Below are positions 14,425-64,000 of a DNA stretch of 64,000 nucleotides, piece after piece; the first letter of the stretch is position 1, and every line of letters starts with the position of its first letter. The DNA comes from Gammaproteobacteria bacterium (GTDB lineage Bacteria; Pseudomonadota; Gammaproteobacteria; SG8-11), in NCBI GenBank assembly GCA_024641505.1, contig JAHECY010000010.1, forward strand, positions 13,596-77,595, in the 5' to 3' direction. Position numbers and translations under genes: made by a program. The notes under the pieces were generated by a model. That model searched no databases. It saw only the letters and a program-made list of their open reading frames with translations, and was not told the origin of the DNA.

Positions 14425-14590
14425 ACCATAACTCCTCGGGAGAGAGTGGCTTTGCCACCGCCGAAGGCGCAACTCGCTCGGAATCGCTCAGGCAAAAGAA
14501 CCGAAGAGATCAGTTGACTCTGGAGAGAGATCAGTTTGCTGATCCGCCGAAGGGGCATACGCTTTCAGGCACAATGGACAGAGGGGCGCG
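14425..14590 (+). ncRNA. glycine riboswitch, tandem aptamers, leader of gcvT operon
   Basis: Aptamer 1: CTCGGGAGAGAG...CACCGCCGAAGGCGCAA...CAGGCAAAAGAACCGAAGAG; aptamer 2: CTCTGGAGAGAG...CCGCCGAAGGGGCA...CAGGCACAATGGACAGAGG; matches the conserved GGAGAG / CGCCGAAGG(A/G)GCAA / CAGGCAAAAGGACAG glycine riboswitch cores; immediately 5' of gcvT. Confidence 0.85.
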
Positions 14591-14650: not shown

Positions 14651-15739
14651 ATGGGCAAGAAAACACCGCTATACGAAGCACATCTTAGTGCTGGCGCCAA
14701 AATCGTGGATTTTGCGGGCTGGCTAATGCCGATTCACTACGGCTCCCAACTTGACGAACACCATTGGGTGCGCACCGGGGCAGGCATGTTCGATGTCTCC
14801 CATATGACTGTGGTGGACCTCAAAGGCGACCGGACACGGGAGTTTCTCCGCGCACTATTGGCCAACGATGTCGACCGACTCACCACCCCGGGCAAAGCGC
14901 TTTACTCCTGCATGCTGCGCCAGGACGGCGGCATTCTCGATGACCTGATCGTCTACGGCATGGCGGCTGACTGGTACCGTATGGTGGTCAATGCCGCCAC
15001 CCGGGAAAAAGACCTGGCCTGGATGCGCACGCAAGCGCAACCTTACGGCATCGACATCACCGAACGCACGGATCTGGCCATGATCGCCGTGCAAGGCCCG
15101 GCGGCACGGGGCAAGGTTCACGCCATTCTCGGCGCCCGCGCCGGTGCACTGCCAGACTTGAAACCCTTCAACGCCCTGGCGCTAAACACGTGGTTTATCG
15201 CGCGTACCGGCTATACCGGCGAGGACGGTTACGAAATCATCCTGCCCGCGATTGACGCCGTGGACTTCTGGCAACAGTTGCGCAATGCCGATGTCCACCC
15301 CTGCGGCCTCGGCGCCCGCGACACCTTGCGCCTGGAAGCCGGCATGAATCTTTACGGCACCGACATGGACGAATCGCTGACCCCGCTGGACTGCGGCCTG
15401 GCCTGGACCGTCGCTTTCACACCGGAGGACCGGCAGTTCATTGGCAGAGACGCTCTGGAAGCGCTCAAACAATCCGGCCTGCGCCACCGTTTTGTAGGCT
15501 TGATCCTGGAAGAACGCGGGGTATTGCGCGGTCATCAAAAAGTGTTCATCGACGGCAAAGAAGTCGGCATCACCACCAGCGGCACCTTTTCGCCCACTCT
15601 AAAACAAGCGATCGCCATGGCGCGGCTATCGGTCCTTGATGGGCATCATTGCGCAGTGGAAATTCGGGGCAAGCTGCTGCCCGCAAGAATCGTTAAACCG
15701 GTGTTCGTGCGCAACGGCAAGTCGTGCGTGGATGCCTGA
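14651..15739 (+). CDS. gcvT: glycine cleavage system aminomethyltransferase T protein
   Basis: 362 aa; GcvT signatures (MPIHYGSQLDEHH, GYTGEDGYEI, LRLEAGM). Confidence 0.95.
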   Translation: MGKKTPLYEAHLSAGAKIVDFAGWLMPIHYGSQLDEHHWVRTGAGMFDVSHMTVVDLKGDRTREFLRALLANDVDRLTTPGKALYSCMLRQDGGILDDLIVYGMAADWYRMVVNAATREKDLAWMRTQAQPYGIDITERTDLAMIAVQGPAARGKVHAILGARAGALPDLKPFNALALNTWFIARTGYTGEDGYEIILPAIDAVDFWQQLRNADVHPCGLGARDTLRLEAGMNLYGTDMDESLTPLDCGLAWTVAFTPEDRQFIGRDALEALKQSGLRHRFVGLILEERGVLRGHQKVFIDGKEVGITTSGTFSPTLKQAIAMARLSVLDGHHCAVEIRGKLLPARIVKPVFVRNGKSCVDA

Positions 15740-51622: not shown

Positions 51623-52735
51623 ATGGATATCAATACACTATTAGACTACCTGCAACCGATCGTCGGCCTGTTCGGCGAGCATCCGTTCGTCAAGGCGGTG
51701 TTGATCATCGGCATCGCTTTCGGCATCGCCAAGTCACTGGCATTTTTCATGGCCAGAGTTATCGGCAATTTAGTGGCGCGCAGCGGCAATCACCTGGACG
51801 ACGCTATCATTTCGCTGTTGCGCCTGCCTCTGTTCTGGACGGTAATCCTGGTGGGCGTATTGGCCGCGGCGGCAGTACTGAAACTGCCGGCATCGGTATT
51901 GGGTTTCATCCAATCGTTGACCGCCACCACCATGATCATCATCTGGTCGCTGTTCACCGGGCGGTTACTGCGCGTACTACTGCGCGCCATGAGCAGACGC
52001 GCCAACTCCCATGCCCTGATTCGCCCGCAAACGCTGCCGCTGTTTGATAATATCGCTCTGATCCTGGTGATCTCGCTGGCGATCTACTTTATTTTCCAGT
52101 CCTGGAATATCGACATGACCGCGTGGCTGGCCTCCGCCGGCATCGTCGGTATCGCGGTCGGCTTCGCCGCCAAGGATACCCTGGCCAATTTGTTTTCCGG
52201 CGTGTTTATTCTGGCGGACGGGCCCTACAAAATCGGCGACTACGTGGTACTGGAAAATGGTATGCGCGGCAAGGTCACGCAGATCGGCATTCGCAGCACG
52301 CGTTTGCTGACTCGGGATGATGTAGAAGTCACCATACCCAATTCCATTATCGGCAATACCAGCGTCATCAACGAGTCCGGCGGCCCTCATGAGAAATTTC
52401 GCATTGCGGTGAAAGTCAGTGTCGCCTACGGCTCCGACATCGATCAGGTTCGGAAAATTCTGGAGACCATCGCAGAGCGCGACACCGGAGTATGCCGTGA
52501 CCCGGAACCGCGGGTGCGCTTCCGCACGTTTGGCGCTTCCGGGCTGGATTTTGAGCTGCTGGTGTGGGTGGAAAACCCGGAACTGCGCGGGCGCGCACTG
52601 GATGCGCTGAACAGCGCGGTGTATAAGCAATTCACGACCGCCGGCATCGAAATCCCGTACAGCAAGCACGATGTGTATATCAAGGCGATGCCGACGACAC
52701 CGGTGAATCCTCCGACAAAACCGCAGCCGGATTGA
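51623..52735 (+). CDS. mechanosensitive ion channel (MscS family) protein
   Basis: 370 aa; TM helices then MscS beta-domain GDYVVLENGMRGKVTQIGIRSTRLLTRDDVEVTIPNS. Confidence 0.85.
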   Translation: MDINTLLDYLQPIVGLFGEHPFVKAVLIIGIAFGIAKSLAFFMARVIGNLVARSGNHLDDAIISLLRLPLFWTVILVGVLAAAAVLKLPASVLGFIQSLTATTMIIIWSLFTGRLLRVLLRAMSRRANSHALIRPQTLPLFDNIALILVISLAIYFIFQSWNIDMTAWLASAGIVGIAVGFAAKDTLANLFSGVFILADGPYKIGDYVVLENGMRGKVTQIGIRSTRLLTRDDVEVTIPNSIIGNTSVINESGGPHEKFRIAVKVSVAYGSDIDQVRKILETIAERDTGVCRDPEPRVRFRTFGASGLDFELLVWVENPELRGRALDALNSAVYKQFTTAGIEIPYSKHDVYIKAMPTTPVNPPTKPQPD

Positions 52736-52779
52736 AGGCAACAGCACTCGCCAGCGATCGGGACCCATCAACAAGAGCA

Positions 52780-52925
52780 GGCACCTCATTAACAAAATCC
52801 GGTACGTTGTGCGCAGGCTGCAATTGGGCCAGTGCGTAGGATGCGTACAACGCACCTCTTTTGCCCTGACTTCCATGGCTTCGTTTGCAATGGAAAACGG
52901 TGCGTAACGCGCACCCTACGCTCCC
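52780..52925. repeat. REP-like palindrome cluster (GGTACGTTGTGCGCA/TGCGTACAACGCACC pair; GGAAAACGGTGCGTAACGCGCACCCTACGC copy of the 21.2-kb REP family)
   Basis: Read directly in the mscS/transglutaminase intergenic region. Confidence 0.75.
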
Positions 52926-53014
52926 GAGTTACCCCTGGCTGCTCGGTTCATCGGCGTTTAAATTTCCGTGACACCCGCCGATAGTAAGGTACGGGTACCG
53001 AGAATATTGCCATA

Positions 53015-54607
53015 ATGAAACTCTGGATTATTACATTGCCTGCCCTGGTGTTATTGCTGGGCCTGTCCACCGCCGTCGCCGACCGTGCGGATGTGTATGC
53101 GCGCATGGATGAAATCGCCTTGAGCGCCCCCCCGGAGGTCACTGGTTCGGTCGCAACCCTGACCGATTACCTGATCTCCGAAGCCAAAACCGACCTGCAG
53201 AAAGCCCGGGCTATCTACCGTTGGATCACCCACAACATCGCGTATGACGCTAATGCCTATGTCAGCGGCCACATTCGGGACGTCAATATCAAACCGGAAT
53301 CCGTGCTTAAAAACCGCGTAACAGTGTGTGACGGCTATGCGCGCCTGTTTGAAGCCATGGGTAAACGCGCCGGTCTGGGCGTGGAACGGATTACGGGCAC
53401 TGCCAAGGGTTATTCTTTTGATCCCGGCGCCGATTTAAAACGGGCCAACCATGCATGGAACGGCGTGGAACTTGAAGGCGCATGGTATCTGGTCGACGCC
53501 ACCTGGGGCGCCGGCTATGTTGATCCCATGAGCCACGAGTTTGTGCCCGCATTCAATGAGTTTTTCTTTTTGACCACACCGGATCAGTTCAAGTACAGCC
53601 ATTACCCGGATCAGCAGATCTGGCAACTTGTGGAAAAACCGGTGTCGTTCAAGGAGTTCGCATCTTACGTGGACATCCGGCCAGCTTTCTTTCAGAATCG
53701 CATGGGGCTGGTGGATGCAACGAACAATACCTTGCGCACCAAAGGCGACCTGGATATCCGCTTGAAAGCGCCGCCGGAAACACTGGTCACGGCCGTGCTC
53801 GTCAAAGACAATACGGCTCTGCCCAGTAATCATCAGTTTTGGCAACGCACCGGCGATACTTACCTGGGCAGGCTGGCGCTGCCAGGCGCAGGCCATTATG
53901 AACTGCAGATATTCGCCAAGGCCAAGACCGATCCCGGCAAGTATCCGGTTGCGCTGATTTACCAAATCGACGCCAGTGGCGCTTCGCAACGCACCTTCCC
54001 CCTGCTGCACCCGGCATTTTTCGACTACGGCCTGGAACTCGTTTCCCACCGGGAAGGAACCATCGAAACTCAATCTCAGGTCGATATCATCCTGGCCAAC
54101 ACCGGCAACGCCTTCATCACTGCGCGCCTGCTGGAACGGGGAGAAACACTACCGTTAAATCTCATCGCCATACAGCGCAAGGCGGACACGGTCATCGCCA
54201 GGGTATTGCTGCCCTTCAAAGGCAAATACCAGCTACAATTGTTTGCCTCAGCCCTGGCGGACCAGCCGGCGCAACTGGCGGCTGAATACACGATTCACAG
54301 CAGCACCGGCGCCGGCAAAGCGGCAAGCTTTCCACTGTTCTTCAGCGCCTACATGCAACAGAGCGCGGAATTGTTGCAACCCATGCACGGCACGCTTAAA
54401 AGCTATCAGGAAGAGGAATTCAAGATTATGGCACCGGGCGCCAGCCGTATCGCCGTGGTCATCAACAATGAATGGCACTATCTAACCAAGCAGGATGACT
54501 TGTTTACCGGCGTGATTCCCGTGACCAGCGGCGTGGTAAAACTGGTCGGCAGTTTCGGCGGCAACTCGGACCAGTTTCAGGTACTGGCGCAATTTGACGC
54601 CATCTAG
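53015..54607 (+). CDS. secreted transglutaminase-like cysteine protease superfamily protein
   Basis: Signal peptide; catalytic triad context VCDGYARLF (Cys), NHAWNGV (His), YLVDATWG (Asp). Confidence 0.8.
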   Translation: MKLWIITLPALVLLLGLSTAVADRADVYARMDEIALSAPPEVTGSVATLTDYLISEAKTDLQKARAIYRWITHNIAYDANAYVSGHIRDVNIKPESVLKNRVTVCDGYARLFEAMGKRAGLGVERITGTAKGYSFDPGADLKRANHAWNGVELEGAWYLVDATWGAGYVDPMSHEFVPAFNEFFFLTTPDQFKYSHYPDQQIWQLVEKPVSFKEFASYVDIRPAFFQNRMGLVDATNNTLRTKGDLDIRLKAPPETLVTAVLVKDNTALPSNHQFWQRTGDTYLGRLALPGAGHYELQIFAKAKTDPGKYPVALIYQIDASGASQRTFPLLHPAFFDYGLELVSHREGTIETQSQVDIILANTGNAFITARLLERGETLPLNLIAIQRKADTVIARVLLPFKGKYQLQLFASALADQPAQLAAEYTIHSSTGAGKAASFPLFFSAYMQQSAELLQPMHGTLKSYQEEEFKIMAPGASRIAVVINNEWHYLTKQDDLFTGVIPVTSGVVKLVGSFGGNSDQFQVLAQFDAI

Positions 54608-55380
54608 GGATTCAGATCACGGTACACCAGTTCCGCCGCGCGCAGCAATGCGGCTTTATCCACTTCCCCTGACAATGCATAACCCACGGATCCGTCGATC
54701 CAGTAGAACACAGCGACTTTTTCCTGCGAACTGTATCGAAAAGCAGTGGCTTCCGCACCGTGTGCCTCCTGAGTGCGTACATATAAGGTCAAGCGCCGGC
54801 CACCGGCATCCTGATACATAAACTGGGCCGCGGGTCGGTCCTGATCCGGCAACAGGCGACCGCCAACCAAATCATACCCTATTGCCTGGAGATGCGGCAC
54901 GCGCACCTCGGTGCCCAATCGTTTCGACAGCCAGTTGACCAGATGCGCTTCCTGTTCCACCCCCACTTCCACCGGATGCAACACTTCCGGCGTATACACC
55001 ACATGCGCTATGGCGGCGCGCTGCGGCAAGGTCGCCAGCGCCGGTAATTCCGACTGTGCCATCCGGTAACCATGTAGCAACCAACCACCTGCACCACCGA
55101 CCACCAGCCAGGTCACTGCCGCCGCCGCGGCCCACGGTAAAGCGGGACGCCGATGACGCCGCGCCGTCACTTGTAATTGGCTCGGCACCGGTTCATCGAG
55201 CACGGCATCGAACATGGAATGCATCAGCGCATTTTGCTTGCGGTAACTCTCCAGGCGCACGACGTCTTCCGGGTGTGCCGCCAACCACTCCGCCACGGCC
55301 TGACGCCGATTATCATCCAGCCTGCCATCCACGTAGGCATGCAATTCATCTTCGCGTATGGGTTTACTACCGTAACTCAT
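54604..55380 (-). CDS. anti-sigma factor (membrane-spanning, N-terminal anti-sigma domain)
   Basis: N-terminus IREDELHAYVDGRLDDNRRQAVAEWL typical of RskA/ChrR-type anti-sigma; central TM; ATGA overlap with upstream ECF sigma. Confidence 0.75.
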   Translation of the reverse strand: MSYGSKPIREDELHAYVDGRLDDNRRQAVAEWLAAHPEDVVRLESYRKQNALMHSMFDAVLDEPVPSQLQVTARRHRRPALPWAAAAAVTWLVVGGAGGWLLHGYRMAQSELPALATLPQRAAIAHVVYTPEVLHPVEVGVEQEAHLVNWLSKRLGTEVRVPHLQAIGYDLVGGRLLPDQDRPAAQFMYQDAGGRRLTLYVRTQEAHGAEATAFRYSSQEKVAVFYWIDGSVGYALSGEVDKAALLRAAELVYRDLNP

Positions 55381-55880
55381 TTTACTCTCCGCAATACCGG
55401 TACGGGTTCGCCCGCCATCAATACCCGCAACTTCTCCCGACCGCGAGCGAGGCGCGACATAACCGTACCCATGGGTATACCCAGGACGCGTGCCGTTTCC
55501 TCATAACTCAATTGTTCCAATCCCACCAGCAATACCACCTCCCGAAACTCGTCGGGCAAGCGCTTGAGCGCCGACACCAGATCCCGGATCTGTATTTGCT
55601 GCTCCTGGCCGGGCGTGACCTCGATATCCATATGCCCTGACTCTTCGCTCATCGAAATCGTGGTCAGACGCCCGGCCCGAACTTGATTGACGAAGGTATT
55701 GTGCATGATGGTAAACAACCAGGCGCGCAGATTGCTGCCGCGTTGCCACAGGGAAAACTTGTGCAGCGCGCGTTCCATGGTGTCTTGCACCAGATCGTCG
55801 GCGGCGGTGACATCACCCACCAGGGCGCGAGCATAGCGCCGCAATCGCGGAATATGCACGGCAATATCATTGGCATCCAT
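55377..55880 (-). CDS. ECF-family RNA polymerase sigma factor (sigma-70 regions 2 and 4)
   Basis: Region 2 DLVQDTMERALHKF...AWLFTIMHNTFVNQVR, region 4 LSYEETARVLGIPMGTVMSRLARGR; start at internal Met 55880. Confidence 0.85.
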   Translation of the reverse strand: MDANDIAVHIPRLRRYARALVGDVTAADDLVQDTMERALHKFSLWQRGSNLRAWLFTIMHNTFVNQVRAGRLTTISMSEESGHMDIEVTPGQEQQIQIRDLVSALKRLPDEFREVVLLVGLEQLSYEETARVLGIPMGTVMSRLARGREKLRVLMAGEPVPVLRRVK

Positions 55881-56098
55881 AGACAAAGAGTTTACTCCAG
55901 GCGAAATCACTTGCGTAGATATGGAACCCATAACCCAGCGACAATGTACGGTATTTCATGGGATGCTCCAATAATTAATCAACTCAGACATAGCAATCGA
56001 CAACTACTCTCGGAGCAAACAGAAATTAATGGGGTTTATTCCCGCATTTTGAAAATTATTCCGGCGGGTAATACGCACCCTCAGTCCGGAAAGGGGAA

Positions 56099-57499
56099 TC
56101 AGGTGAACAGTCTGGACAAGTCAACACCGGGCTCGAGCGGGGGCCCCTCGGGAAATTGACCGAGGTCATTGTAAGCGGTGCGGGGAAATACCGCGACACC
56201 ACTGCCGGGACGCACCCAATCACAAGCGGCAGCACACACTCGTTCAAAAGAGGTAAGCCCCTTGATGTCGCTGCCATGAGTATCATAGGGCGCGGGCCCG
56301 GTGCTGTTGTTGATTTCGCGCCGCGGGAACATCTCCCCGTAGATGCCACCGGCAACCGCGGGTCCGATCAAAATTTGATAATTACCGGTGCCATGATCGG
56401 TACCGGCATCACCATTGGCGTGCAGTTGGCGGCCGAATTCCGTGGTGACGACAAAAGTGGTGTTGGCAAGCGCATCCGGCGCCACGGCGGAACTGAAGGC
56501 TGCGAAACCGCCATCACTGCCGAACAATGCATCGAAACTCGTTTCCAGAAAAATTCGTTGCGCCCGGTGGGTATCCCAACCCCCGTACTCCATCGATACC
56601 GCACGCGGTTTTAACAGGTCGGCCGCGGAATAGCCGTCATAGATGTTGGCCCACTGCTTAGCCAAGGGTTTGGCATTGGCCGTCAGCGCCGTGACAGCGT
56701 CCGGTAATGGATACGCATCAGTGACGGCTCTCACGCCATCGCCAAAACGGCGCAACACCATTTCATTCTGCAAAATCTTATGATAGGGCCAGGCCGTTGG
56801 CATGGTCGCGGACTGTATTTGTTTGGCGGCGTAATAACTTTTCAGGGATCGAGCCATGCGCTCCTGCCAGATACCGGCGCTGCCCGTGGACAACGCGAAA
56901 TTCCTGCTGTCGCGCATATGGACCAGACGAGCGTGACGATGGGCCGGATTCGTGCCGTTGCAAAAAATGGAGACAGTGTCCGTAACAGCGACAACATTGG
57001 CCTCCGGCATGGTTTCCATCAGACGGCCACCCCAACCGTCCCGGTCATAATCATACTGACTGGCGGCGAGATCCCCGGACGCCATTACCAGTTGCGCCTG
57101 ATCGTGACGCCGCAGCTCCGAGGCCAAGACATTGCTGACGATAGCCACATTGCCGGCGTCAAACTGTGCTTTCAACCACGGCGCGGCTTTGTGGATACCA
57201 AAGCCGAAAGGAGAACCATCGGTCACGGCAAGATAGTTGTCCGCGAAAGCCTGTGCGTAGTCGGCATAGTTGACCCGGTTATAATTGTACAGAGCGCTGC
57301 GCGCTTCCCAGAAACGCGCTGCATAGGCTGTATCCGACGGGTGCGGCGCAAACAAGAAACGAAAATCCGCGCCGCCGACACACATAAGATGCACCAGCAA
57401 CCGTTCGGGGACTCCCGGGACGGCCCAGGCGGTAACCGGTAAACCACCCGCCATCAGCGGCGCTCCAAGCAATAATTTTAAAAATTCCCGGCGCCGCAT
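56099..57499 (-). CDS. DUF1501 family protein (sulfatase/alkaline-phosphatase-like fold) with Tat signal MRRREFLKLL
   Basis: Twin-arginine motif; C-terminal TTEFGRQLHANGDAGTDHGTGN typical of DUF1501. Confidence 0.75.
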   Translation of the reverse strand: MRRREFLKLLLGAPLMAGGLPVTAWAVPGVPERLLVHLMCVGGADFRFLFAPHPSDTAYAARFWEARSALYNYNRVNYADYAQAFADNYLAVTDGSPFGFGIHKAAPWLKAQFDAGNVAIVSNVLASELRRHDQAQLVMASGDLAASQYDYDRDGWGGRLMETMPEANVVAVTDTVSIFCNGTNPAHRHARLVHMRDSRNFALSTGSAGIWQERMARSLKSYYAAKQIQSATMPTAWPYHKILQNEMVLRRFGDGVRAVTDAYPLPDAVTALTANAKPLAKQWANIYDGYSAADLLKPRAVSMEYGGWDTHRAQRIFLETSFDALFGSDGGFAAFSSAVAPDALANTTFVVTTEFGRQLHANGDAGTDHGTGNYQILIGPAVAGGIYGEMFPRREINNSTGPAPYDTHGSDIKGLTSFERVCAAACDWVRPGSGVAVFPRTAYNDLGQFPEGPPLEPGVDLSRLFT

Positions 57500-57500
57500 A

Positions 57501-59420
57501 TTACCCGCCTCCCGTGGCGAACATAAAGGGCGTCATGGAAATAAAATCGACAGCGAGTCCGATATTGCGCTGCGTTACATAACGCGTATTGGTATCGTTA
57601 CTGTCGAGATTCAGTATCGCCGCCTCATGGGCGTTGATATAGGACGCATAAGGTTCGGACGACAATTCGGTTTCGCTAAACACATGCTCCGGGTCGACTT
57701 CGTTCACAACGAAGCCGAAATCAAGACCGGTGGCCAGGAAAGCGGTAACGTAGGCGCGCTCCAGCAAGCCGTAATGCGCCAGGTCATCCGCCACAAACCG
57801 TTGCCATAACCACTCAGCGATTTCCCTTACCCGGTAGACACCTACGGCGTTAGGCGGCATCACCCGGGACCATTGTTTCTCCCAAAGATGGTCACCGGCG
57901 GAGTCGGTATACTTTTCCTGATACTTTACGACAAACCAATAATTATCGACCGCGGCGTTATAGGCAAGCTTGAAGATGTCGGGATTATTCACCGCATCCA
58001 GCGAAGTTTGTCCGCCGAACACATCATGCGCCGGAATAAATGGCGTCAATCCCTGAAGGCTCAGCATGGACGATGGGATCCAGGAGTTCTCATAGGCTTC
58101 CTCGTTGTCCACAGTATTGAGATTGAACAGCAGCAGGTTGCGGTCGACGGCGGTGTAGTATTTGAATGTGTCGGAGCGATGCAGCATCGGCGAAATCGCA
58201 TAGGCACGTAGAAACATCAACAGATCCTTCTGCGGTAACTCGCGCCACAGGGTACGGATTGCCTGAATTTTTTCCGCATTCAAATTATCATCGGCAAAAT
58301 GTCCAATCATGTACACCGGTAAATTATCCAGACTTTCCTGAACATTGATCGCCACCCCCGACAGAGCATAGATCTTGTCACGGGCCGTAGCGCCGGAAAT
58401 GGTCGCACCCAGAATCTCCAGGTCACCGGCATGGTGCAGCGTGCCATTATTCAGCACCGTACCCATGGCATCGGTATGATCGCTGAATTCAATCAGATTC
58501 AACCAGTAATCATTTGCGATGTCACTACCGCCCCAGGCTGAAGCATCGCGATCAATGCGCATGCCCGTCAGCGCGCGGGCGGTATTCTCAATGGTGACTT
58601 CTTCGTGATACTCCTGGGGAAAATCACGGCCGTTATCACGAAAAAACAACTGGTGGAATTCACGCGCGAAGTCGTCGTTGCCACGAAACTGCAAGGTGTT
58701 GTTATCGAAAGTATTGGTATAATGCCCATAATGCATGGCCACTGCCGCAGACGTTGCGCCGCGCGCCAGAATATTCCACATCGGTTCACCGGCAGCCAGA
58801 TCCGACATGACATCGTCATACATTCCCCGGATCAGAGTGGGCCGTACTTTATAGAGACTGACCGCCATCAGGTAATTGGTGAGAAACAATCCGACTTTCT
58901 GCCGAAAGGGATTCAATCCGCTTTTATTGGTGCTGGCCACCCAGGTATTAATCAACGCGCTGGCACTAAGCGATTTCAGATTGGTATTGGGATTGGTGGC
59001 AAGCACGGCGAACCTTGAGCGTAAATCCTCCCGTGTCGCATTTTCCGCATCGCTGGATGACCAGTGCGTTTGCAGCTGTTCCAGAGTTCCCCCCTGGGCT
59101 CCGGTAGCGTCAACGACCGGGGACAGCAATGGATTTACCTCATCGAAGGTCAACATCTGCGCGATAGCCACCTCCGGCGCCAGAGCCGCCCATGACTTGA
59201 TCTGCGCGTCTGAAGCCTGACCACCATAGGCGAAAAGATGCAGTACTTTGCGTACCGCGGCCTCGGTCCAGAGAATCCCCGGAGGGGGATCGGATTCCGT
59301 TTTCGGTGCCGGGTCCTTCGGTGGCACATTGCCAGCACCGCGATCGTGGCCGCCATCACAGGCAACCACCTGCAACAGCATTACAAGCGCGAGCAAGACG
59401 TTCTTCATCCAAATTCCCAT
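57501..59420 (-). CDS. DUF1800 family lipoprotein (usual partner of DUF1501)
   Basis: 639 aa; lipobox LLQVVAC; 1-bp gap to DUF1501 gene, conserved pair arrangement. Confidence 0.7.
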   Translation of the reverse strand: MGIWMKNVLLALVMLLQVVACDGGHDRGAGNVPPKDPAPKTESDPPPGILWTEAAVRKVLHLFAYGGQASDAQIKSWAALAPEVAIAQMLTFDEVNPLLSPVVDATGAQGGTLEQLQTHWSSSDAENATREDLRSRFAVLATNPNTNLKSLSASALINTWVASTNKSGLNPFRQKVGLFLTNYLMAVSLYKVRPTLIRGMYDDVMSDLAAGEPMWNILARGATSAAVAMHYGHYTNTFDNNTLQFRGNDDFAREFHQLFFRDNGRDFPQEYHEEVTIENTARALTGMRIDRDASAWGGSDIANDYWLNLIEFSDHTDAMGTVLNNGTLHHAGDLEILGATISGATARDKIYALSGVAINVQESLDNLPVYMIGHFADDNLNAEKIQAIRTLWRELPQKDLLMFLRAYAISPMLHRSDTFKYYTAVDRNLLLFNLNTVDNEEAYENSWIPSSMLSLQGLTPFIPAHDVFGGQTSLDAVNNPDIFKLAYNAAVDNYWFVVKYQEKYTDSAGDHLWEKQWSRVMPPNAVGVYRVREIAEWLWQRFVADDLAHYGLLERAYVTAFLATGLDFGFVVNEVDPEHVFSETELSSEPYASYINAHEAAILNLDSNDTNTRYVTQRNIGLAVDFISMTPFMFATGGG

Positions 59421-59596
59421 CTGTGTCCAGGGGTAGCGTATTCTTCCCTCTGCCAGGTAACGTTAAAGGATATAGGATCGAAAAACCATTAAATTGATTA
59501 AGATAGGCCTGAGTGCGGAGCTTTATGTAAAGCCACCGCGAGAATCAAGCGTGCCTGGCAATGGCATGGCACGCTTGCGCAACAAACCGCAACCGG

Positions 59597-60502
59597 TTAG
59601 ACGGATTCCAACTGGTAGCGCACCCACATCTGATGTTCTTCATTGGGTGCCAAGGTCACAACGTCCTGCTCCGCGTTCGCGCTTTCCACGCACACCATCG
59701 ACAAATAGCCGTTATCACTCATATCACCAAAACGCGCGGCCTTTTCTTCCCAGGGATTCCATACCACCGTGGCGGCGCTGCCGCGCTTGCTGATGCGAAT
59801 GCGGCGCTGCCAACCCGGATCATCAATAACGCAGTCGCCAGCAGTGTTGACGTATACGCGATCCACCTCCGAGCTGATCGCCACCGCACCCTGCTGACGC
59901 TTGGTTTTGCGCGCATCGACCTTATCTACATAGTCAACGTTCTCCAGCCCTGAAATTCGGCATTGGCGTACGTCACTCACCGCGAAATAGGTATGCAATG
60001 CCTGGCCGATGGTCACGGGATTTGTGCCGTGATTGCGGTTTGCCATCAACATTTCCAGCGTATCACCAACGGTAACGCGAAACTCCAATGACGTAACTTC
60101 AGGCCACATAACGCGATCACTGTCGACCATCGGCAAGCGCAAAACCAACTCCGTGGCGCCACTGGCGAGTTGCCGCGTGGACACCACGTCCCAATCACGG
60201 GTGCGAGCGAATCCATGGGCGGGAAATTCGGCATTAGTTGCATGCGGGCCAAACCAAGGCCAACACACAGGCACCCCACCACGCAAAGATTTTCCTGGCG
60301 TGTACTTCGCCGCCTCAGATGTCCAGATTACCGGTTTGGCAGCGGTCGGCGCCCAATGCACCACCTGAGCCCCTTGCAGCAGGATGCGCGCGTTGCCAAG
60401 AGCATTGTCTACTTCTATGATGACAAGCGCACTGGGACCCGCGCTGAATGCGACATGTCCCGGAATACCAAAGCGCTCGTTTAGTGCTGCTAGTGATGAC
60501 AT
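59597..60502 (-). CDS. yeaD: D-hexose-6-phosphate mutarotase (aldose 1-epimerase-like, YeaD family)
   Basis: 301 aa; N-terminus FGIPGHVAFSAGPSALVIIEV, TVVWNPWEEKAARFGDMSDNGYLSMVCVESAN. Confidence 0.8.
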   Translation of the reverse strand: MSSLAALNERFGIPGHVAFSAGPSALVIIEVDNALGNARILLQGAQVVHWAPTAAKPVIWTSEAAKYTPGKSLRGGVPVCWPWFGPHATNAEFPAHGFARTRDWDVVSTRQLASGATELVLRLPMVDSDRVMWPEVTSLEFRVTVGDTLEMLMANRNHGTNPVTIGQALHTYFAVSDVRQCRISGLENVDYVDKVDARKTKRQQGAVAISSEVDRVYVNTAGDCVIDDPGWQRRIRISKRGSAATVVWNPWEEKAARFGDMSDNGYLSMVCVESANAEQDVVTLAPNEEHQMWVRYQLESV

Positions 60503-60575
60503 GATATCTATCCTGTGAATGCGGAAATCGGAGCCGTCTATTCTAGCTCCGGTATCCGCTGCAAGATAGTACCTT

Positions 60576-61283
60576 TTACGCGGTTTGCCTTATCCCCGTG
60601 AGACGCGGCATAGCGCGGGATAATTGCGCCACTACCGGCGGCACACCGCCAGGAACGAGAATTTTTTCAACCCCGAAGAACTTGCTGATCTGTTGCCCAT
60701 CGACCACAAAACCCTCACCGTCTTCCAGCACCACCACCGGAAGCTTGGACTCATCGGCCAGCACCTGCAATTCTTGAAGATCACGCTGTGCCCAATGGGC
60801 GTCATGTTCGAAATGCGGACTGATGTGAAACGGCAGACGCCCCATGCCTTCCAGCCGATGTAGATTCAGGGTATTTTCGTCGGGAAAACTGCTGGGAATA
60901 CCGGCAGTGGCAATGTCGGGCGACAATATAATGCTGCCCGCCGACTCGGCGACGATCAAACCACCCCGGGATTCGAATTCAGCCAACACGGCAAATAAAT
61001 CAATAGCGCGCGCATAATCCAGAAATTCGTAGGTGTTGCCACCGATCAGATAAACCGCCGCCGACGCCAGAATTTCCTGACGCACACGCTCCGCATCTGC
61101 ATAATCTTGCGGTGCCAATGCCGTGGTCGGAATATCGACATCCCGAAAATACTGCGCGGCCTCATCAGCGGCTTGCGCTTCTCCGGCAGCGAACGGAATT
61201 GCGGTAAATACACCATGTCGCCCTAAATGCCTACGCAATAATTCATCCAGCGCAGGGACTTCCCCACTGTACACATACAACAT
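60576..61283 (-). CDS. peptidase S51 (dipeptidase E-like) / class I glutamine amidotransferase-like protein
   Basis: S51 motifs AVYLIGGNTYEF and nucleophile VAESAGSII; start at second Met (GGGGGG upstream). Confidence 0.7.
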   Translation of the reverse strand: MLYVYSGEVPALDELLRRHLGRHGVFTAIPFAAGEAQAADEAAQYFRDVDIPTTALAPQDYADAERVRQEILASAAVYLIGGNTYEFLDYARAIDLFAVLAEFESRGGLIVAESAGSIILSPDIATAGIPSSFPDENTLNLHRLEGMGRLPFHISPHFEHDAHWAQRDLQELQVLADESKLPVVVLEDGEGFVVDGQQISKFFGVEKILVPGGVPPVVAQLSRAMPRLTGIRQTA

Positions 61284-61671
61284 TAGCCCCCCCATTACGC
61301 CACGGGTAATACCCGACGAACGCGCCCAATTATACGCATTCGACGCATGAATGAAACCCCGGAATAGATCGTTTAACCCATTGTATTTCTAACCATAATG
61401 TATACACTGTCGGGTTATCACCGGAGTCCAGTACGCTCCATGCGACTACACCTGCCGCACCATATACCACTACCCAGCCCTGTCACCGGTTTTATATACC
61501 GCATGGTAATAACTCCTTTCATCCATTTGAGCCTGGGTGGCGTACCTGGAGAGCGCAGACTGGATAATTGGAAAATGTGAAAACCAAGCTTCTAACCAGG
61601 CGTTCAACCCGAACGTCGATCCAACGAATCCCAGCGCGGTGCATGACCCATACTATCAGGGAGATCTATAC

Positions 61672-61977
61672 ATGACGCTTTTGAGTCTCTTGCTTCTTGT
61701 CAATGCCGTGCTGCACGGCGTCATTGTCGGGCGCTTCGGAATCAAGGGAAACGTTCCTCCCGTGGCGTTCGGGTTCATATATTCGGCGTTGGCGATTGCC
61801 GTCTTCCGTGGCTGGCCTAGCGGGTCCCTCGTCACCTTGGTGGTGACTACGTTTGGTCTCATCGGCCTTGCGCTGAATTTCAGGAAATTGCAGCACGACA
61901 CGACGATTGAGAAGATTATCTTCATTGTCGGGGGTGCGATTCTCCTATGCGCCGCCTATCTGCTTCTGATCGGATAG
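61672..61977 (+). CDS. small integral membrane protein (3 TM), hypothetical
   Basis: Start ATG 61672 with GGGAG 9 nt upstream; last GC-rich gene before the low-GC cassette region. Confidence 0.5.
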   Translation: MTLLSLLLLVNAVLHGVIVGRFGIKGNVPPVAFGFIYSALAIAVFRGWPSGSLVTLVVTTFGLIGLALNFRKLQHDTTIEKIIFIVGGAILLCAAYLLLIG

Positions 61978-62233
61978 CACCTGACCCTGTTTTATCGGGA
62001 ACCATTCATACCCAATCAGTCAGTCCACAAGATCTATTCGGCAACTACCAGCAGGTCAATACCGACGCCCGACCTGACGCGCTTCGTGCCAGGCCGGGCA
62101 CGTGTTACCATGGTCGTAATGAAATGAACAACAACGATTCAACTAATTTTCTATATTTTAAATCGGCAACATACAAGGCTTATATTTTTAATTCATTGCA
62201 ATTTTGAAGCAGCGACATGCATAAGGTTGCACA

Positions 62234-62566
62234 TTGTATATTTGCTCTATCGACAACCTTGAAACAATTAACGTTGAAGGCCAGTATTCTTTTAGAGGTA
62301 ACGGCACCGCAAAGCTAGTGCAAGCCGGCGACATGATAACGATATTTTTTGATGGCTTGCCACTGCCGGATATTGAAGCAAGAGGTAAGATCACAGGCAT
62401 TTTGATTACTGGACAATGGGTCGTCCCTGACACTCGATACACTTCCAGTGAAGGTTGGAACTATTTTCATGCAAAAATCCTTAACGACGGAAATACTATA
62501 GATTTATCAGAAAGCACGGATCAGGCGGCGATTTCCATGAGCTCCATTATATTATTCAGGAGATAA
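62234..62566 (+). CDS. cassette ORF 1, hypothetical protein (110 aa)
   Basis: ORF in AT-rich region; no recognisable domain. Confidence 0.4.
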   Translation: MYICSIDNLETINVEGQYSFRGNGTAKLVQAGDMITIFFDGLPLPDIEARGKITGILITGQWVVPDTRYTSSEGWNYFHAKILNDGNTIDLSESTDQAAISMSSIILFRR

Positions 62567-62691
62567 CCAGTGATTAGCCAAGCTCGCCTCTACAGCGTCT
62601 TGAATACTACGATGATCCACATATTTGCGTGTAGTCGCTGCGGAAAATCTTTTTATGAAGAGCATATGCGAAATGCCCATTAATAATTACA

Positions 62692-62754
62692 CTTTAACAT
62701 CTTAGCATTTATACGCTGTGCGCAGCATGGCGTATAAATGCTAAGATGTTAGAA
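62692..62754 (+). mobile_element. candidate short attC site (63 bp near-perfect palindrome ending in core-like GTTAGAA)
   Basis: cTTTAAC-atctt-agcatttatacgc-tgtgcgcagcatg-gcgtataaatgct-aagat-GTTAGAA; ends in TAAC/GTTA like R''/R' boxes; next ORF starts 19 nt later. Confidence 0.45.
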
Positions 62755-62772
62755 AAAGACAGGGGCTTAGCT

Positions 62773-63279
62773 ATGTCGCAATATATTATTACTACGCTAG
62801 CACTCTTACTTGGTATTGCTGCATCTGCTATTGCATCTGGCGACGACCATAACTCAAACTATACCTATAGCGAACCTCCAAAACTCAACGGTTGTTCACC
62901 TTTACTTCCTGGAAATTCAAAGGAAAGGGACTGCGTTAGTTTTGAAAAGACGCTAAACCTGTTCTTTGAACAAGAAGGTTCTTCTAACCGGGGAAAATTA
63001 TTCTTAGCAGCCATACAACTTTTCGAATTAGAAAATAGAAATGGCGATAGAAATCTTAATGTTAAAGTTGGTGAATTTATAAAGCATTTTGGAAAACCTG
63101 ACTACAGGAGAGAGACTACTTTCCGAGGTGAAAATGTTACCGAATACGCTTATTTGTTCAACAATCATTCTCATCATGACTGGATTTGCGTGATTTCCTT
63201 TACAAAAGATAGAATTTCTACTATCTGGTATAACGAAACGAAGGTTATGCTACTTGCTGGATGGGATGAATTAGAGTAA
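62773..63279 (+). CDS. cassette ORF 2, secreted hypothetical protein (signal peptide MSQYIITTLALLLGIAASAIASG)
   Basis: Start at 62773 (AGGGG upstream) rather than 62746 which lies inside the palindrome; stop is followed directly by the attC. Confidence 0.5.
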   Translation: MSQYIITTLALLLGIAASAIASGDDHNSNYTYSEPPKLNGCSPLLPGNSKERDCVSFEKTLNLFFEQEGSSNRGKLFLAAIQLFELENRNGDRNLNVKVGEFIKHFGKPDYRRETTFRGENVTEYAYLFNNHSHHDWICVISFTKDRISTIWYNETKVMLLAGWDELE

Positions 63280-63392
63280 TTCTAACCATTCGTTCAAACC
63301 GACTCTTTTGTCAACGGCCAAACGGTTGTATCGAAAAAGCATACATCCGTTTGGCCGTTGACAAAAGAGCGGGTTAACATTTTTCGTTAGGC
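63280..63392 (+). mobile_element. integron attC (59-base-element) recombination site, 113 bp
   Basis: R'' TTCTAAC - CATTC - L'' GTTCAAACCGA - 23-bp perfect inner stem CTCTTTTGTCAACGGCCAAACGG / CCGTTTGGCCGTTGACAAAAGAG - L' CGGGTTAAC - ATTTTTC - R' GTTAGGC; compare aadA1 attC GTCTAAC-AATTC-GTTCAAGCCGA...CGGCTTAAC-...-GTTAGAT. Confidence 0.8.
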
Positions 63393-63408
63393 TAGGAGAA
63401 AACTAGTA

Positions 63409-63933
63409 GTGACTAAACGCTTAATAGATGATCTTCAATGCTACATCGCTACCACCTCTGTCGGCGCATCTACTGTTCGCGGTTCTCCCACAGGAACAGT
63501 TGAAGCCTCCAGAGAGTTTTTATCACAGTTATCACTCCGCCAATTCGGGGTGAAGGGTAAGCACATATTTTGCCGAAATCTTGATTATGAGACAGAGAAT
63601 TTAACGATATCTTTTCCGCGTGGACGCCAACACTGGGCCCTATCGAGAAAGGTATTAAATATATTCTTGCACAACGCATTCTATAACTATTACTTGCGCG
63701 ACTATTACAACCTTGATTATTCCGAAGGACATTACGAAGTACCAATTGATTCTGTAGTTGCAAAGGGTTTAAGAAAAAGATTTCCGAGAGGTACTTTTAA
63801 TCGCTGGACTGGTCTCGGCACCCTCACTCCAAAAATGCATGAAACATATCAACATCATGCGCAAATATTGGCAGACAGAGAAGGATATGCTCGCGTTCAC
63901 TTAGACGCTATACTGTGGGTTCAAGAAAGGTAA
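63409..63933 (+). CDS. cassette ORF 3, hypothetical protein (174 aa), GTG start with AGGAG 10 nt upstream, begins 17 nt after GTTAGGC core
   Basis: ORF placed as expected for a cassette-borne gene; no recognised family. Confidence 0.5.
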   Translation: MTKRLIDDLQCYIATTSVGASTVRGSPTGTVEASREFLSQLSLRQFGVKGKHIFCRNLDYETENLTISFPRGRQHWALSRKVLNIFLHNAFYNYYLRDYYNLDYSEGHYEVPIDSVVAKGLRKRFPRGTFNRWTGLGTLTPKMHETYQHHAQILADREGYARVHLDAILWVQER

Positions 63934-64000
63934 ATAGTTTATGGAGCATTTAAATTTCGATGAAACCATACATCGCAATGCCTAATCGGGTAACCAGGGG

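Follow-up and report, generated by a model that had tools for sequence, protein, structure and literature searches.

The left edge of a probable integrase-less integron cassette array with a canonical attC site and a glycosylase-like cassette gene family in an uncultured proteobacterium

Positions 63280-63392 of the analysed DNA are a genuine textbook attC site. The sequence that begins near 62100 (with certainty by 62749) and runs to the end of the window, by which we mean the whole 64-kb stretch under study, is probably the promoter-proximal (left) edge of a cassette array without an integrase. The element would be of the CALIN type, or a SALIN if no further attC follows. One of its cassette genes, ORF3, leads into a widespread glycosylase-like family that lacks annotation and is found repeatedly on cassettes and in defence islands. 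The features on which these statements rest are collected in Table 1.

Table 1. Features at the right-hand end of the window.
Feature	Position	Strand	Remarks
R''-like motif TTCTAACCA	61387-61395	+	copy 1 of 3; perhaps a decayed attC remnant
attC half-site remnant	61590-61612	+	R'' TTCTAAC, 5-nt spacer, L'' GTTCAACCCGA; attC2 sequence family
Small membrane-protein gene, 101 aa	61672-61977	+	annotated in source record (P0104); sits between attC remnant and low-GC block
Low-GC segment	62100-62691	+	doubtful ORF1 (62234-62566) and 37-codon ORF (62570-62683)
Atypical attC-like palindrome	62692-62754	+	R''-like CTTTAAC, R'-like GTTAGAA; inferred junction G/TT at 62748/62749
Cassette 2, 638 bp	62749-63386	+	ORF2 and attC2; bounded by two G/TT junctions
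ORF2, 168 aa, secreted	62773-63279	+	signal peptide, Pro-rich linker, BamE/OsmE/BLIP-like alpha+beta domain
attC2, canonical attC, 113 nt	63280-63392	+	anchored scan, covariance model, folding
attC2, 5' boxes	63280-63286; 63287-63291; 63292-63302	+	R''; spacer; L''
attC2, 3' boxes	63370-63378; 63379-63385; 63386-63392	+	L'; spacer; R'; crossover between G63386 and T63387
ORF3, 174 aa, first gene of cassette 3 (from 63387)	63409-63933	+	GTG start, AGGAGA Shine-Dalgarno
GCCTAAT	63980-63986	+	possible but unproven third R''; 6/7 to predicted GCCTAAC; AAT for conserved AAC

Results

Composition and extent of the region

The GC content is 0.558 over positions 1-61300 of the window and 0.401 over positions 62101-64000, and the lowest value of any 1-kb segment in the rest of the window is 0.475. 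An earlier reading had placed a drop from about 60% to about 40% at about 61980. The drop is real, but this sharp fall lies at about 62100 and its starting level is about 0.53-0.56, from which it goes down to 0.40. Core chromosomal genes, encoding an S51 peptidase and an aldose epimerase, adjoin the low-GC block, and the window ends 608 nt past attC2. The membrane-protein gene between the block and the half-site remnant has a GC3 of 0.71, compared with 0.31-0.38 for ORF2 and ORF3, and is thus host-like in composition; its protein gave no protein-family match. A blastn comparison of the region with plasmids found no DNA similarity. When the window was scanned against Rfam, whose families do not include attC, the sole match was a tandem glycine riboswitch.

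A canonical attC site follows ORF2

The site designated attC2 starts one nucleotide after the ORF2 stop, which ends at 63279. Its four boxes read exactly in the order and spacing that the first-pass annotation had given, and they are close to those of the aadA1 attC. R'' (TTCTAAC) agrees with RYYYAAC at 6/7 positions, with a T at the R position, and R' (GTTAGGC) agrees with GTTRRRY at 7/7; five of the seven positions of the two R boxes pair. Between them, GTT-C-AAACCG-A of L'' pairs with CGGGTT-AAC of L', so that 12 of the 13 anchored pairs are formed; no pairs form in the 5-nt and 7-nt spacers. The extra bases are C63295 and A63302, which the bottom strand carries as G and T; they lie six nt apart as in aadA1. 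This is the only match in the window to the anchored attC architecture, and no shuffled sequence reached 11/13. The 35-nt arms (63297-63331 and 63341-63375) are 91% complementary and fold with z-scores of -9.4 and -10.7 (0 of 200 shuffles fold as well).

A covariance-model search, which had been proposed earlier as a check, also matched the site. We used a model built for this analysis (R1) from 18 metagenomic attC sites and that of aadA1, mostly GC-rich. With default filters this model missed even attC2, and the filters were therefore switched off for the matches reported here. The score of attC2, the only match in the window, was 25.2 bits (E = 6.8e-5 in 6 kb; 7.3e-4 for the whole window on both strands), and real attC sites held out of the training set (dfrA1, L012 and L009) scored 25-35 bits, with dfrA1 at 29.7. 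The aadA1 sequence used here was checked against plasmid records, 1962 of which match it at 99% identity or more.

An atypical palindrome marks the inferred junction of cassette 2

A palindrome at 62692-62754 ending in GTTAGAA had also been reported, and it exists as described. Its 27-nt arms (62695-62721 and 62725-62751) are 93% complementary, and it folds at -24 to -26 kcal/mol (z about -9.3; 0 of 200 shuffles as good). However, the minimum-free-energy structure is an unbroken helix of 22 pairs on the bottom strand to 27 on the top strand, with no extra-helical bases, bulge, internal loop or unpaired spacer, and the anchored scan does not find it. It gave no covariance-model match at E ≤ 10 with filters off, a result that the GC-rich training set may bias against this site. 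CTTTAAC and GTTAGAA each agree at 6/7 positions with core sites, and the palindrome reads equally on both strands.

What connects it to the cassettes is the junction rule, which it obeys. The GTTAGAA at its 3' end is complementary at 7/7 positions to R'' of attC2 (TTCTAAC), and the same complementarity between R' and the next R'' was seen in 16 of the 18 pairs of neighbouring attC sites in our control arrays. The 5' TTAGAA of cassette 2 complements its own R'' TTCTAA. From this pattern, the hallmark of a cassette junction, we infer such a junction at 62748/62749.

attC remnants reach up to the core genes

The first-pass annotation had mentioned neither a repeated 9-mer nor an attC half-site that we found here. 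The 9-mer TTCTAACCA occurs three times in the window, always on the + strand and always within 61387-63288 (0.28 copies expected; at least three copies in 0 of 100 shuffles). For the copy at 61387, direct reading found no L'/R' partner. The half-site at 61590 is identical to the 5' half of attC2 at 20 of 23 positions (0 expected in shuffles). It has no canonical 3' half, the stretch 61586-61800 folds no better than shuffles (z = -0.41), and there is no model match. We also considered 61590-61797, which contains a 10-bp perfect inverted repeat, as one long attC, and rejected it: it is bulge-less, has an unstructured centre of 150 nt with a start codon inside, and does not match the model. The pattern that the half-site shares with attC2, TTCTAACCA...GTTCAAxCCGA, suggests that deletions have eroded an array specific to this lineage.

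The left edge of the low-GC block shows no recognisable site. When the left junction of a putative cassette 1 was sought as GTTAAAG, the only near-match was an unconvincing GTTGAAG at 62273, inside ORF1.

Two cassette genes and a doubtful third

The first-pass annotation listed three unknown cassette genes on the same strand, each followed by a palindrome within a few nucleotides. The close spacing holds for ORF2 only, as ORF1 stops at 62566, 125 nt before the palindrome at 62692, and no palindrome follows ORF3 in the 67 nt that remain. ORF2 and ORF3 are real genes in cassette-like units: both lie on the same strand in cassette orientation, have a low GC content and have their own Shine-Dalgarno sequence. 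ORF1 is doubtful. It is unannotated in the source record, its GC1, GC2 and GC3 values are flat, ORFs of 110 codons turn up in 2% of shuffles, and no homologue was found; it is probably not a gene. The 37-codon ORF next to it has an AGGAGA Shine-Dalgarno and a CxxC...HxxxxH motif. Searches of ORF1-ORF3 against Pfam, PADLOC and NCBIfam, and of the 37-aa product against PADLOC and NCBIfam, gave no significant match; two NCBIfam hits lay far below the cutoff, at E of about 0.1. ORF2 had been described as secreted, and a signal peptide is indeed present; it is a rare secreted BamE/BLIP-like protein.

GCCTAAT downstream of ORF3 had been suggested as the R'' of a third site. The motif is there and is close to the prediction, but no structure or model match accompanies it: the 67 nt after ORF3 (63934-64000) contain no palindrome (z = -0.16) and no truncated model match. 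By our estimate, about 9% of 67-nt stretches would contain a match of this quality. In relatives of ORF3, an attC lies 8-25 nt past the stop.

Class of the element and alternative readings

No IntI-like protein was found in the 64 kb in six frames; searches with annotated IntI1 by tblastn and phmmer --max gave best E-values of 0.26 and 2.8, and this bears out the earlier statement that no intI is visible upstream. There is no tyrosine recombinase in the window. The gene upstream is that of the S51 peptidase, not intI, and attI is not definable. Since no integrase-like protein is present in the window, the element beside the core genes is probably of the CALIN or SALIN type. By default, IntegronFinder 2 calls a CALIN from at least two attC sites (PMC9024848). 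The window contains one validated attC, one atypical site and one half-site remnant, and with a single validated site this default number is not demonstrably reached within it. Of the earlier call of an array or CALIN, the part that stands is therefore integron-cassette DNA without a nearby integrase; only one attC passes the model. The region may represent a SALIN or the margin of an array that extends further.

It is improbable that we are looking at part of a complete integron whose integrase is encoded on the contig outside the window or was split off by rearrangement or fragmentation, so that the CALIN is an artefact of the view. In draft assemblies, CALIN counts are inflated through split integrons (PMC9024848). 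The window ends at 64000 of a source contig of 78,086 bp, and the contig of a related MAG ends 83 nt upstream of the S51 homologue, at the same junction. The cassettes, however, are oriented on the + strand (ORF, then R'' to R'), and attI and intI are thus expected to the left, where 61 kb of core genes hold no IntI- or Xer-like sequence and the S51 peptidase gene begins only 92 nt from the first attC-like motif.

We also give little credence to a reading with only one real junction, in which one or two cassettes were inserted at an attG-like genomic site to form a SALIN and the palindrome at 62692 is an unrelated hairpin. This would explain why attC2 alone passes the model, why the hairpin lacks every unpaired attC feature and why host-like genes directly adjoin the low-GC block, and SALINs, which are common, originate when an integrase mediates insertion into attG sites (bioRxiv 10.1101/2022.09.11.507474). 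It does not account for the exact complementarity of GTTAGAA to the next R'', with both motifs leaving the consensus at the same outer position. Moreover, the related attC remnants further left favour an eroded array over a fresh insertion, and the presence of ORF3 beyond attC2 requires two cassettes or more.

A chimeric join at the palindrome, which would mean that the low-GC end does not truly lie beside the core genes, is very unlikely. The source looks like a MAG, with unnamed proteins and a UBA MAG as nearest relative, and a contig of an independent Logan assembly stops at 62698, the start of the palindrome, so that continuity across the palindrome rests on one assembly. Yet the same Logan contig matches 51672-62698 at 99.94% and crosses the GC junction at about 62100, reaching about 600 nt into the low-GC block. 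In addition, the junction rule ties together the two sides of the palindrome, and remnants of the attC family are found on the high-GC side.

Finally, there is next to no likelihood that the palindromes are ordinary terminators, which the first-pass annotation had itself considered, or REP-like elements in a generic horizontally acquired islet with no relation to integrons: both are strong hairpins after ORFs, but neither has a T-tract, 0 terminator-like sites were found against 2.6 expected, the same kind of site flanks ORF3 relatives in 25 loci, and for 63280-63392 the reading is effectively refuted by the asymmetric bulges at canonical spacing, the R and L boxes and the significant model match. 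The left edge of an integrase-less cassette array is our preferred reading.

ORF3 belongs to a recurrent cassette family

At least 245 proteins make up the ORF3 family, for which Pfam, NCBIfam and PADLOC have no matching model. Among 80 metagenomic loci, 25 have attC model matches beside the gene, all in gene orientation. The closest relative (72% identity) has an attC 8 nt past its stop, in an array that also carries RelA_SpoT and DUF2971 cassettes. Judged from these sequence neighbourhoods, the family is a recurrent integron cassette. Other members have restriction-modification or other defence-related genes as neighbours, Gabija-like ones included: SmaI with a methyltransferase, HsdR, HsdM, REase-ARP, Dcm, a ParB-methyltransferase, TIR, Abi, an ABC three-component system, Shedu, and AAA with UvrD. 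The neighbours vary, and no conserved partner gene was found.

ORF3 gave no sequence match in the PDB and no tblastn match in phages. The confident structure model, predicted to be helical, most resembles AGOG/Ogg2 DNA glycosylases; the similarity is distant, and the best Foldseek hit is not significant (E = 1.1, TM 0.35). Across the family, residues K81 and W133 do not vary and D114 and D166 hardly do, with W170 four residues after D166 ('WW' in the consensus). ORF3 had been named as a possible defence gene. The AGOG/Ogg2-like predicted fold and the defence-island neighbours lend this real support, and the function stays a candidate one.

Discussion

Cassette clusters without an integrase are common, RefSeq containing thousands of them, and the element itself therefore adds little: it is ordinary, a further example of the known CALIN/SALIN type. 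More can be learned from its parts. A textbook attC beside a bulge-less palindrome that marks a junction, in an uncultured proteobacterium, is relevant to the decay of attC sites or to the range of structures that an integrase tolerates. Likewise, the attC remnants right up to the core genes would document the erosion of an array.

By analogy with established integron biology, the bottom (-) strand of attC2 would fold into a hairpin in which the extra-helical G and T and the unpaired spacer let an IntI tetramer pick this strand. IntI would then cleave the R' box between its A and its C (top strand G63386/T63387), and cassette 2 could leave as a circle and re-insert at attI or at an attC. With no integrase in cis, the cassettes would be immobile cargo unless an IntI from elsewhere acts in trans. 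As there is no Pc promoter, they would depend on read-through or on promoters of their own.

For ORF3, the most likely single assignment, which we put forward tentatively on the basis of the model and by analogy, is an HhH (AGOG/Ogg2-like) DNA glycosylase, with a plausible antiviral role in excising modified phage bases, like the Dag glycosylases carried by integrons. A more specific proposal, and one that we consider rather unlikely, is that ORF3 represents an undescribed compact (about 175 aa) family of AGOG-like HhH glycosylases. These would be single-gene antiviral effectors acting on modified (e.g. 7-deazaguanine) or marked phage DNA, mobile among cassettes, plasmids and restriction-modification or defence islands. 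Under the antiviral-effector reading, the family would amount to a new Dag-type family or else to a repair glycosylase associated with restriction-modification. The ORF3 family is in keeping with recent work in which antiviral DNA glycosylases were found to be stocked by integrons (bioRxiv 10.1101/2025.10.29.685425), and it is directly testable.

Comparison with known systems

The attC of aadA1 from class 1 integrons has the same architecture as attC2, with about one base difference per box. Both have R'' xTCTAAC, a 5-nt spacer ending in TTC, L'' GTTCAAxCCGA with the extra C and A six nt apart, L' GCGGxTTAAC and R' GTTAGxx. They differ in length, as the aadA1 site has 60 nt and attC2 113 nt with a long AT-rich variable stem, and in the 3' spacer (6 nt in aadA1, 7 nt in attC2). 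The cargo is unrelated.

With CALINs and SALINs the region shares same-strand, attC-bounded cassettes that look promoterless, adjoining ordinary chromosomal genes and the lack of a nearby intI. Its apparent small size is typical, 1362 of 2961 CALINs having two cassettes (bioRxiv 10.1101/2022.09.11.507474). The difference is that the second site here is a bulge-less hairpin. Sedentary chromosomal arrays such as the Vibrio VCR arrays are alike in having sites of one family in the same orientation (here attC2 and the 61590 half-site, 20/23), cargo of the unknown or defence type and a GC content below that of the host. In contrast to them, this array has no integrase or attI and only two to three recognisable units, one truncated and one atypical.

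The closest parallels to ORF3 are the Dag glycosylases of Vibrio integrons, with which we compare it by published description. Dag proteins are HhH-like and integron-borne and use a Lys/Asp pair together with a Trp, W188 following D184 by four residues (bioRxiv 10.1101/2025.10.29.685425). Like the ORF3 family, they are small single-gene proteins whose glycosylase nature is undetectable by sequence and whose predicted fold is HhH/AGOG-like, they are carried on integron cassettes, and they have defence or mobile genes nearby. By sequence pattern, K118, D184 and W188 of Dag1 may correspond to the conserved Lys and the Asp-x3-Trp near the C-terminus of the ORF3 family. The Lys-to-Asp spacing is 85 residues in ORF3 and 66 in Dag1, and ORF3 has 174 aa whereas at least one Dag representative in the PSI-BLAST table of that study (ABXG99_RS10765, Dag17) has about 230 (bioRxiv 10.1101/2025.10.29.685425). 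The AGOG/Ogg2 8-oxoguanine glycosylase-lyases (PDB 1xqp, 3n0u and 7olb) are 12-15% identical to ORF3, which is about 40-80 residues shorter. AGOG/Ogg2 enzymes are housekeeping proteins, whereas the ORF3 family is accessory and mobile.

A canonical attC site in an integrase-less cassette cluster

The low-GC end of the window is an ordinary integron-type cassette cluster without an integrase, with one validated attC site inside the window. This site, attC2, is a canonical attC. In its 5' half, C63295 and A63302 are extra bases at a distance of six nucleotides and correspond to an extra-helical G and T on the bottom strand. The attC of aadA1, whose reference sequence occurs at an identity of at least 99% in 1962 plasmid records, has the same extra-base geometry. 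The arms (63297-63331/63341-63375; 35 nt) are 91% complementary. Both attC2 and a second palindrome at 62692 fold strongly on each strand (z -9.3 to -10.7; 0 of 200 shuffles were as good), and a loose, energy-based search of both strands of the 64 kb for RYYYAAC...GTTRRRY hairpins brought up no other strong site.

Features of the cassette region and one further element of the window
Feature	Position	Strand	Remarks
Tandem glycine riboswitch	14427-14583	+	Two aptamers, 67.7 and 38.1 bits; upstream of ORF 14651-15739
R''-like copy of TTCTAACCA	61387-61395	+	attC-family remnant outside the first-pass interval
attC half-site	61590-61612	+	TTCTAACCAGGCGTTCAACCCGA; 20/23 match to R''-spacer-L'' half of attC2
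ORF1	62234-62566	+	Doubtful as a gene
37-codon ORF	62570-62683	+	VISQARLYSVLNTTMIHIFACSRCGKSFYEEHMRNAH; unannotated; AGGAGA Shine-Dalgarno 7 nt upstream
62692 palindrome	62692-62754	+	Ends CTTTAAC and GTTAGAA, each 6/7 to R boxes
Cassette 2 (predicted)	62749-63386		638 bp; junction rule
ORF2	62773-63279	+	
attC2	63280-63392	+	R'' TTCTAAC, spacer CATTC, L'' GTT-C-AAACCG-A-CTCT..., L' ...GAG-CGGGTT-AAC, spacer ATTTTTC, R' GTTAGGC
Cassette 3 start (predicted)	63387		Junction rule
ORF3	63409-63933	+	GTG start; AGGAGA Shine-Dalgarno; annotated in source (P0001, contig 78,086 bp)

A strict scan required R boxes, a 4-6-nt spacer, 3+6+4 paired positions and both bulges. attC2 was its sole match in the window (12/13 pairs), none of 40 dinucleotide shuffles of the window reached 11/13, and the positive controls aadA1 and dfrA1 gave 13/13 and 11/13. 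In a comparison locus (L084, 4445-4569) the scan also matched 12/13 pairs in the intI1 5' end/attI1 region of a class 1 integron, probably a false positive, which the covariance model did not report. This model, in line with the covariance-model search that the first-pass annotation had proposed, was built on 18 attCs of metagenomic loci plus aadA1, none of them from the window. With its speed filters off (attC2 is missed with the default filters), it found attC2 as the sole significant match at 25.2 bits (E 6.8e-5 in 6 kb, 7.3e-4 in the whole window). Real attCs held out from training scored 29.7 (dfrA1), 34.7 and 25.3 (L012), and 35.4 and 24.9 bits (L009). Box architecture, strict scan and model thus bear out the near-textbook attC that had been recognized by eye. 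The alternative that the palindromes are ordinary terminators is contradicted by the absence of intrinsic-terminator-like sites in 61200-64000 (0 found vs 2.6 expected).

Cassette junctions

The 62692 palindrome is attC-like but atypical. Its arms (62695-62721/62725-62751; 27 nt) are 93% complementary and fold into a continuous stem with neither extra-helical base nor unpaired spacer. Both palindromes first described are thus present, but this one failed the strict scan and gave no match at E<=10 to the covariance model, a GC-rich model with a possible bias against such a site.

In cassette arrays, the six bases that follow the crossover point G|TT are already part of the next cassette and hence complement the R'' box of that cassette's attC. 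GTTAGAA (62748-62754) complements the attC2 R'' box TTCTAAC (63280-63286) without a mismatch, and in both the same outer position is off-consensus. Of 18 consecutive attC pairs in control arrays, 16 obeyed the rule perfectly; the two exceptions spanned gaps with a missed site. Despite its atypical form, the palindrome thus appears to mark a cassette junction, from which the limits of cassettes 2 and 3 are predicted. The attC of cassette 3 should begin with GCCTAAC. The GCCTAAT at 63980, proposed earlier as a third R'' box, does match at 6/7 positions, but lacks the conserved AAC, and the window ends before more can be seen; by our estimate, an equally good match is expected in ~9% of 67-nt stretches, and the last 67 nt after ORF3 show no structure (z -0.16). 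Three cassettes with three attCs therefore overstated what is visible: the window shows a single canonical attC, a junction palindrome of atypical form, and no third site.

Two of the three proposed cassette genes are solid, but ORF1 is doubtful: no homologue was found, it is unannotated in the source, an ORF of its length occurs in 2% of shuffles, and its GC1/2/3 are flat. Most of the gap between ORF1 and the palindrome is occupied by the 37-codon ORF, a speculative gene candidate with a zinc-finger-like CxxC...HxxxxH motif, which stops 8 nt before the palindrome.

Base composition, assembly and attC remnants

GC content is 0.558 in 1-61300, 0.524 in 61296-62100 and 0.401 in 62101-64000; in the rest of the window, it is at least 0.475 in every 1-kb stretch. 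The drop noted in the first-pass annotation is real, but it was placed ~120 nt too far left: in 100-nt bins, GC falls from 0.57 to 0.30 at ~62100. A Logan assembly made independently from run SRR12825371 covers 51672-62698 at 99.94% (7 mismatches in 11 kb), which takes in the GC junction. Its contig stops at 62698, where the opening CTTTAAC box of the palindrome ends; either the assembly broke at the palindrome or the population is heterogeneous there; continuity across both palindromes is supported by the source assembly alone. A chimera, in which the low-GC end was wrongly joined to the core-gene side, is argued against by the junction rule and by attC remnants on the high-GC side.

Three copies of TTCTAACCA lie in the window, at 61387, 61590 and 63280, and each is on the + strand (0.28 expected; three copies in 0 of 100 shuffles). 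The copy at 61590 opens the attC half-site, and a comparable 20/23 match was absent from every shuffle. The half-site has no canonical 3' half and no covariance-model match. A 10-bp inverted repeat 150 nt away was rejected as its 3' half (no bulges; interval unstructured, z -0.41). A short way downstream lies a gene, annotated in the source, for a 101-aa membrane protein (61672-61977) of host-like codon composition (GC3 0.71 vs 0.31-0.38 in ORF2/ORF3). The remnants suggest a lineage-specific array that may once have extended to the S51 peptidase gene and has since eroded.

The contig of the sole related genome found (L003; DKAS01000082.1, Proteobacteria bacterium UBA6920, 1-83; S51 peptidase 66% identical) breaks off at the equivalent of this junction, with 83 nt left ahead of the S51 gene. 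There, too, assembly may have been interrupted by a repeat or variable region.

Class of the element

From the cassette orientation, attI and intI are expected to the left, where genes for the S51 peptidase, an aldose epimerase and DUF1800/DUF1501 proteins are found. The integrase query was IntI1 as annotated on a Salmonella plasmid, which shares 99.4% identity with a reference IntI1 sequence across 330 residues. In all six frames of the window, the best E values were 0.26 (tblastn) and 2.8 (phmmer --max), in agreement with the missing intI of the first reading. IntegronFinder 2 defines a CALIN by at least two attC sites, while lone sites can still be genuine (PMC9024848); such SALINs may arise through insertion at genomic attG sites (bioRxiv 10.1101/2022.09.11.507474). 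With one attC validated in the window, the element may formally be a CALIN or a SALIN.

The ORF3 family

The most interesting lead is ORF3, which belongs to an unannotated, glycosylase-like family found both on cassettes and within defence islands. ORF3 itself has no match among Pfam, NCBIfam and PADLOC models, and its homologues number 81 in the protein collection and 165 among contigs of metagenomes. A model-supported attC adjoins the homologue in 25 of 80 metagenomic loci, always in the gene's orientation; 12 of these 25 loci had contributed nothing to the training set. At the closest relative (L090, 593-691 and 1784-1861; 72% identity), an attC lies 8 nt past the stop, followed by RelA_SpoT and DUF2971 cassettes. 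Four loci from Ga0194111/125/126 metagenomes, representing one environment (L025, L043, L046, L047), have near-identical ~105-nt attCs at 500-850-bp spacing, a sedentary-type array with the homologue as one cassette.

Neighbours include SmaI with an N4/N6 methyltransferase at one locus and, elsewhere, type I HsdR, an HsdM-like methylase, REase-ARP, a C5 methylase, a ParB-methylase, a TIR protein, an HNH nuclease and a serine recombinase; the family has no single conserved partner gene. Plasmid homologues (38-40% identity, annotated as hypothetical) lie in defence islands with Abi, PIN, PLD-like, DUF4435 and ABC three-component genes (Burkholderia gladioli, L086) or with Shedu, an AAA ATPase and a UvrD helicase (Cupriavidus pMTS3, L088). 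DUF2971 also occurs near the Cupriavidus homologue.

Within the family, K81 and W133 are invariant and D114 and D166 nearly so; four residues past D166 stands a Trp (W170 in ORF3, 'WW' in the consensus). Vibrio integrons carry many HhH-like 'Dag' glycosylases which are undetectable by sequence search, destroy 7-deazaguanine-modified phage DNA, and use a Lys/Asp pair and a Trp to do so, with D184 and W188 four residues apart (bioRxiv 10.1101/2025.10.29.685425). The Asp-to-Trp distance is the same in ORF3 (D166/W170), and, as a candidate glycosylase, ORF3 would fit the Dag picture.
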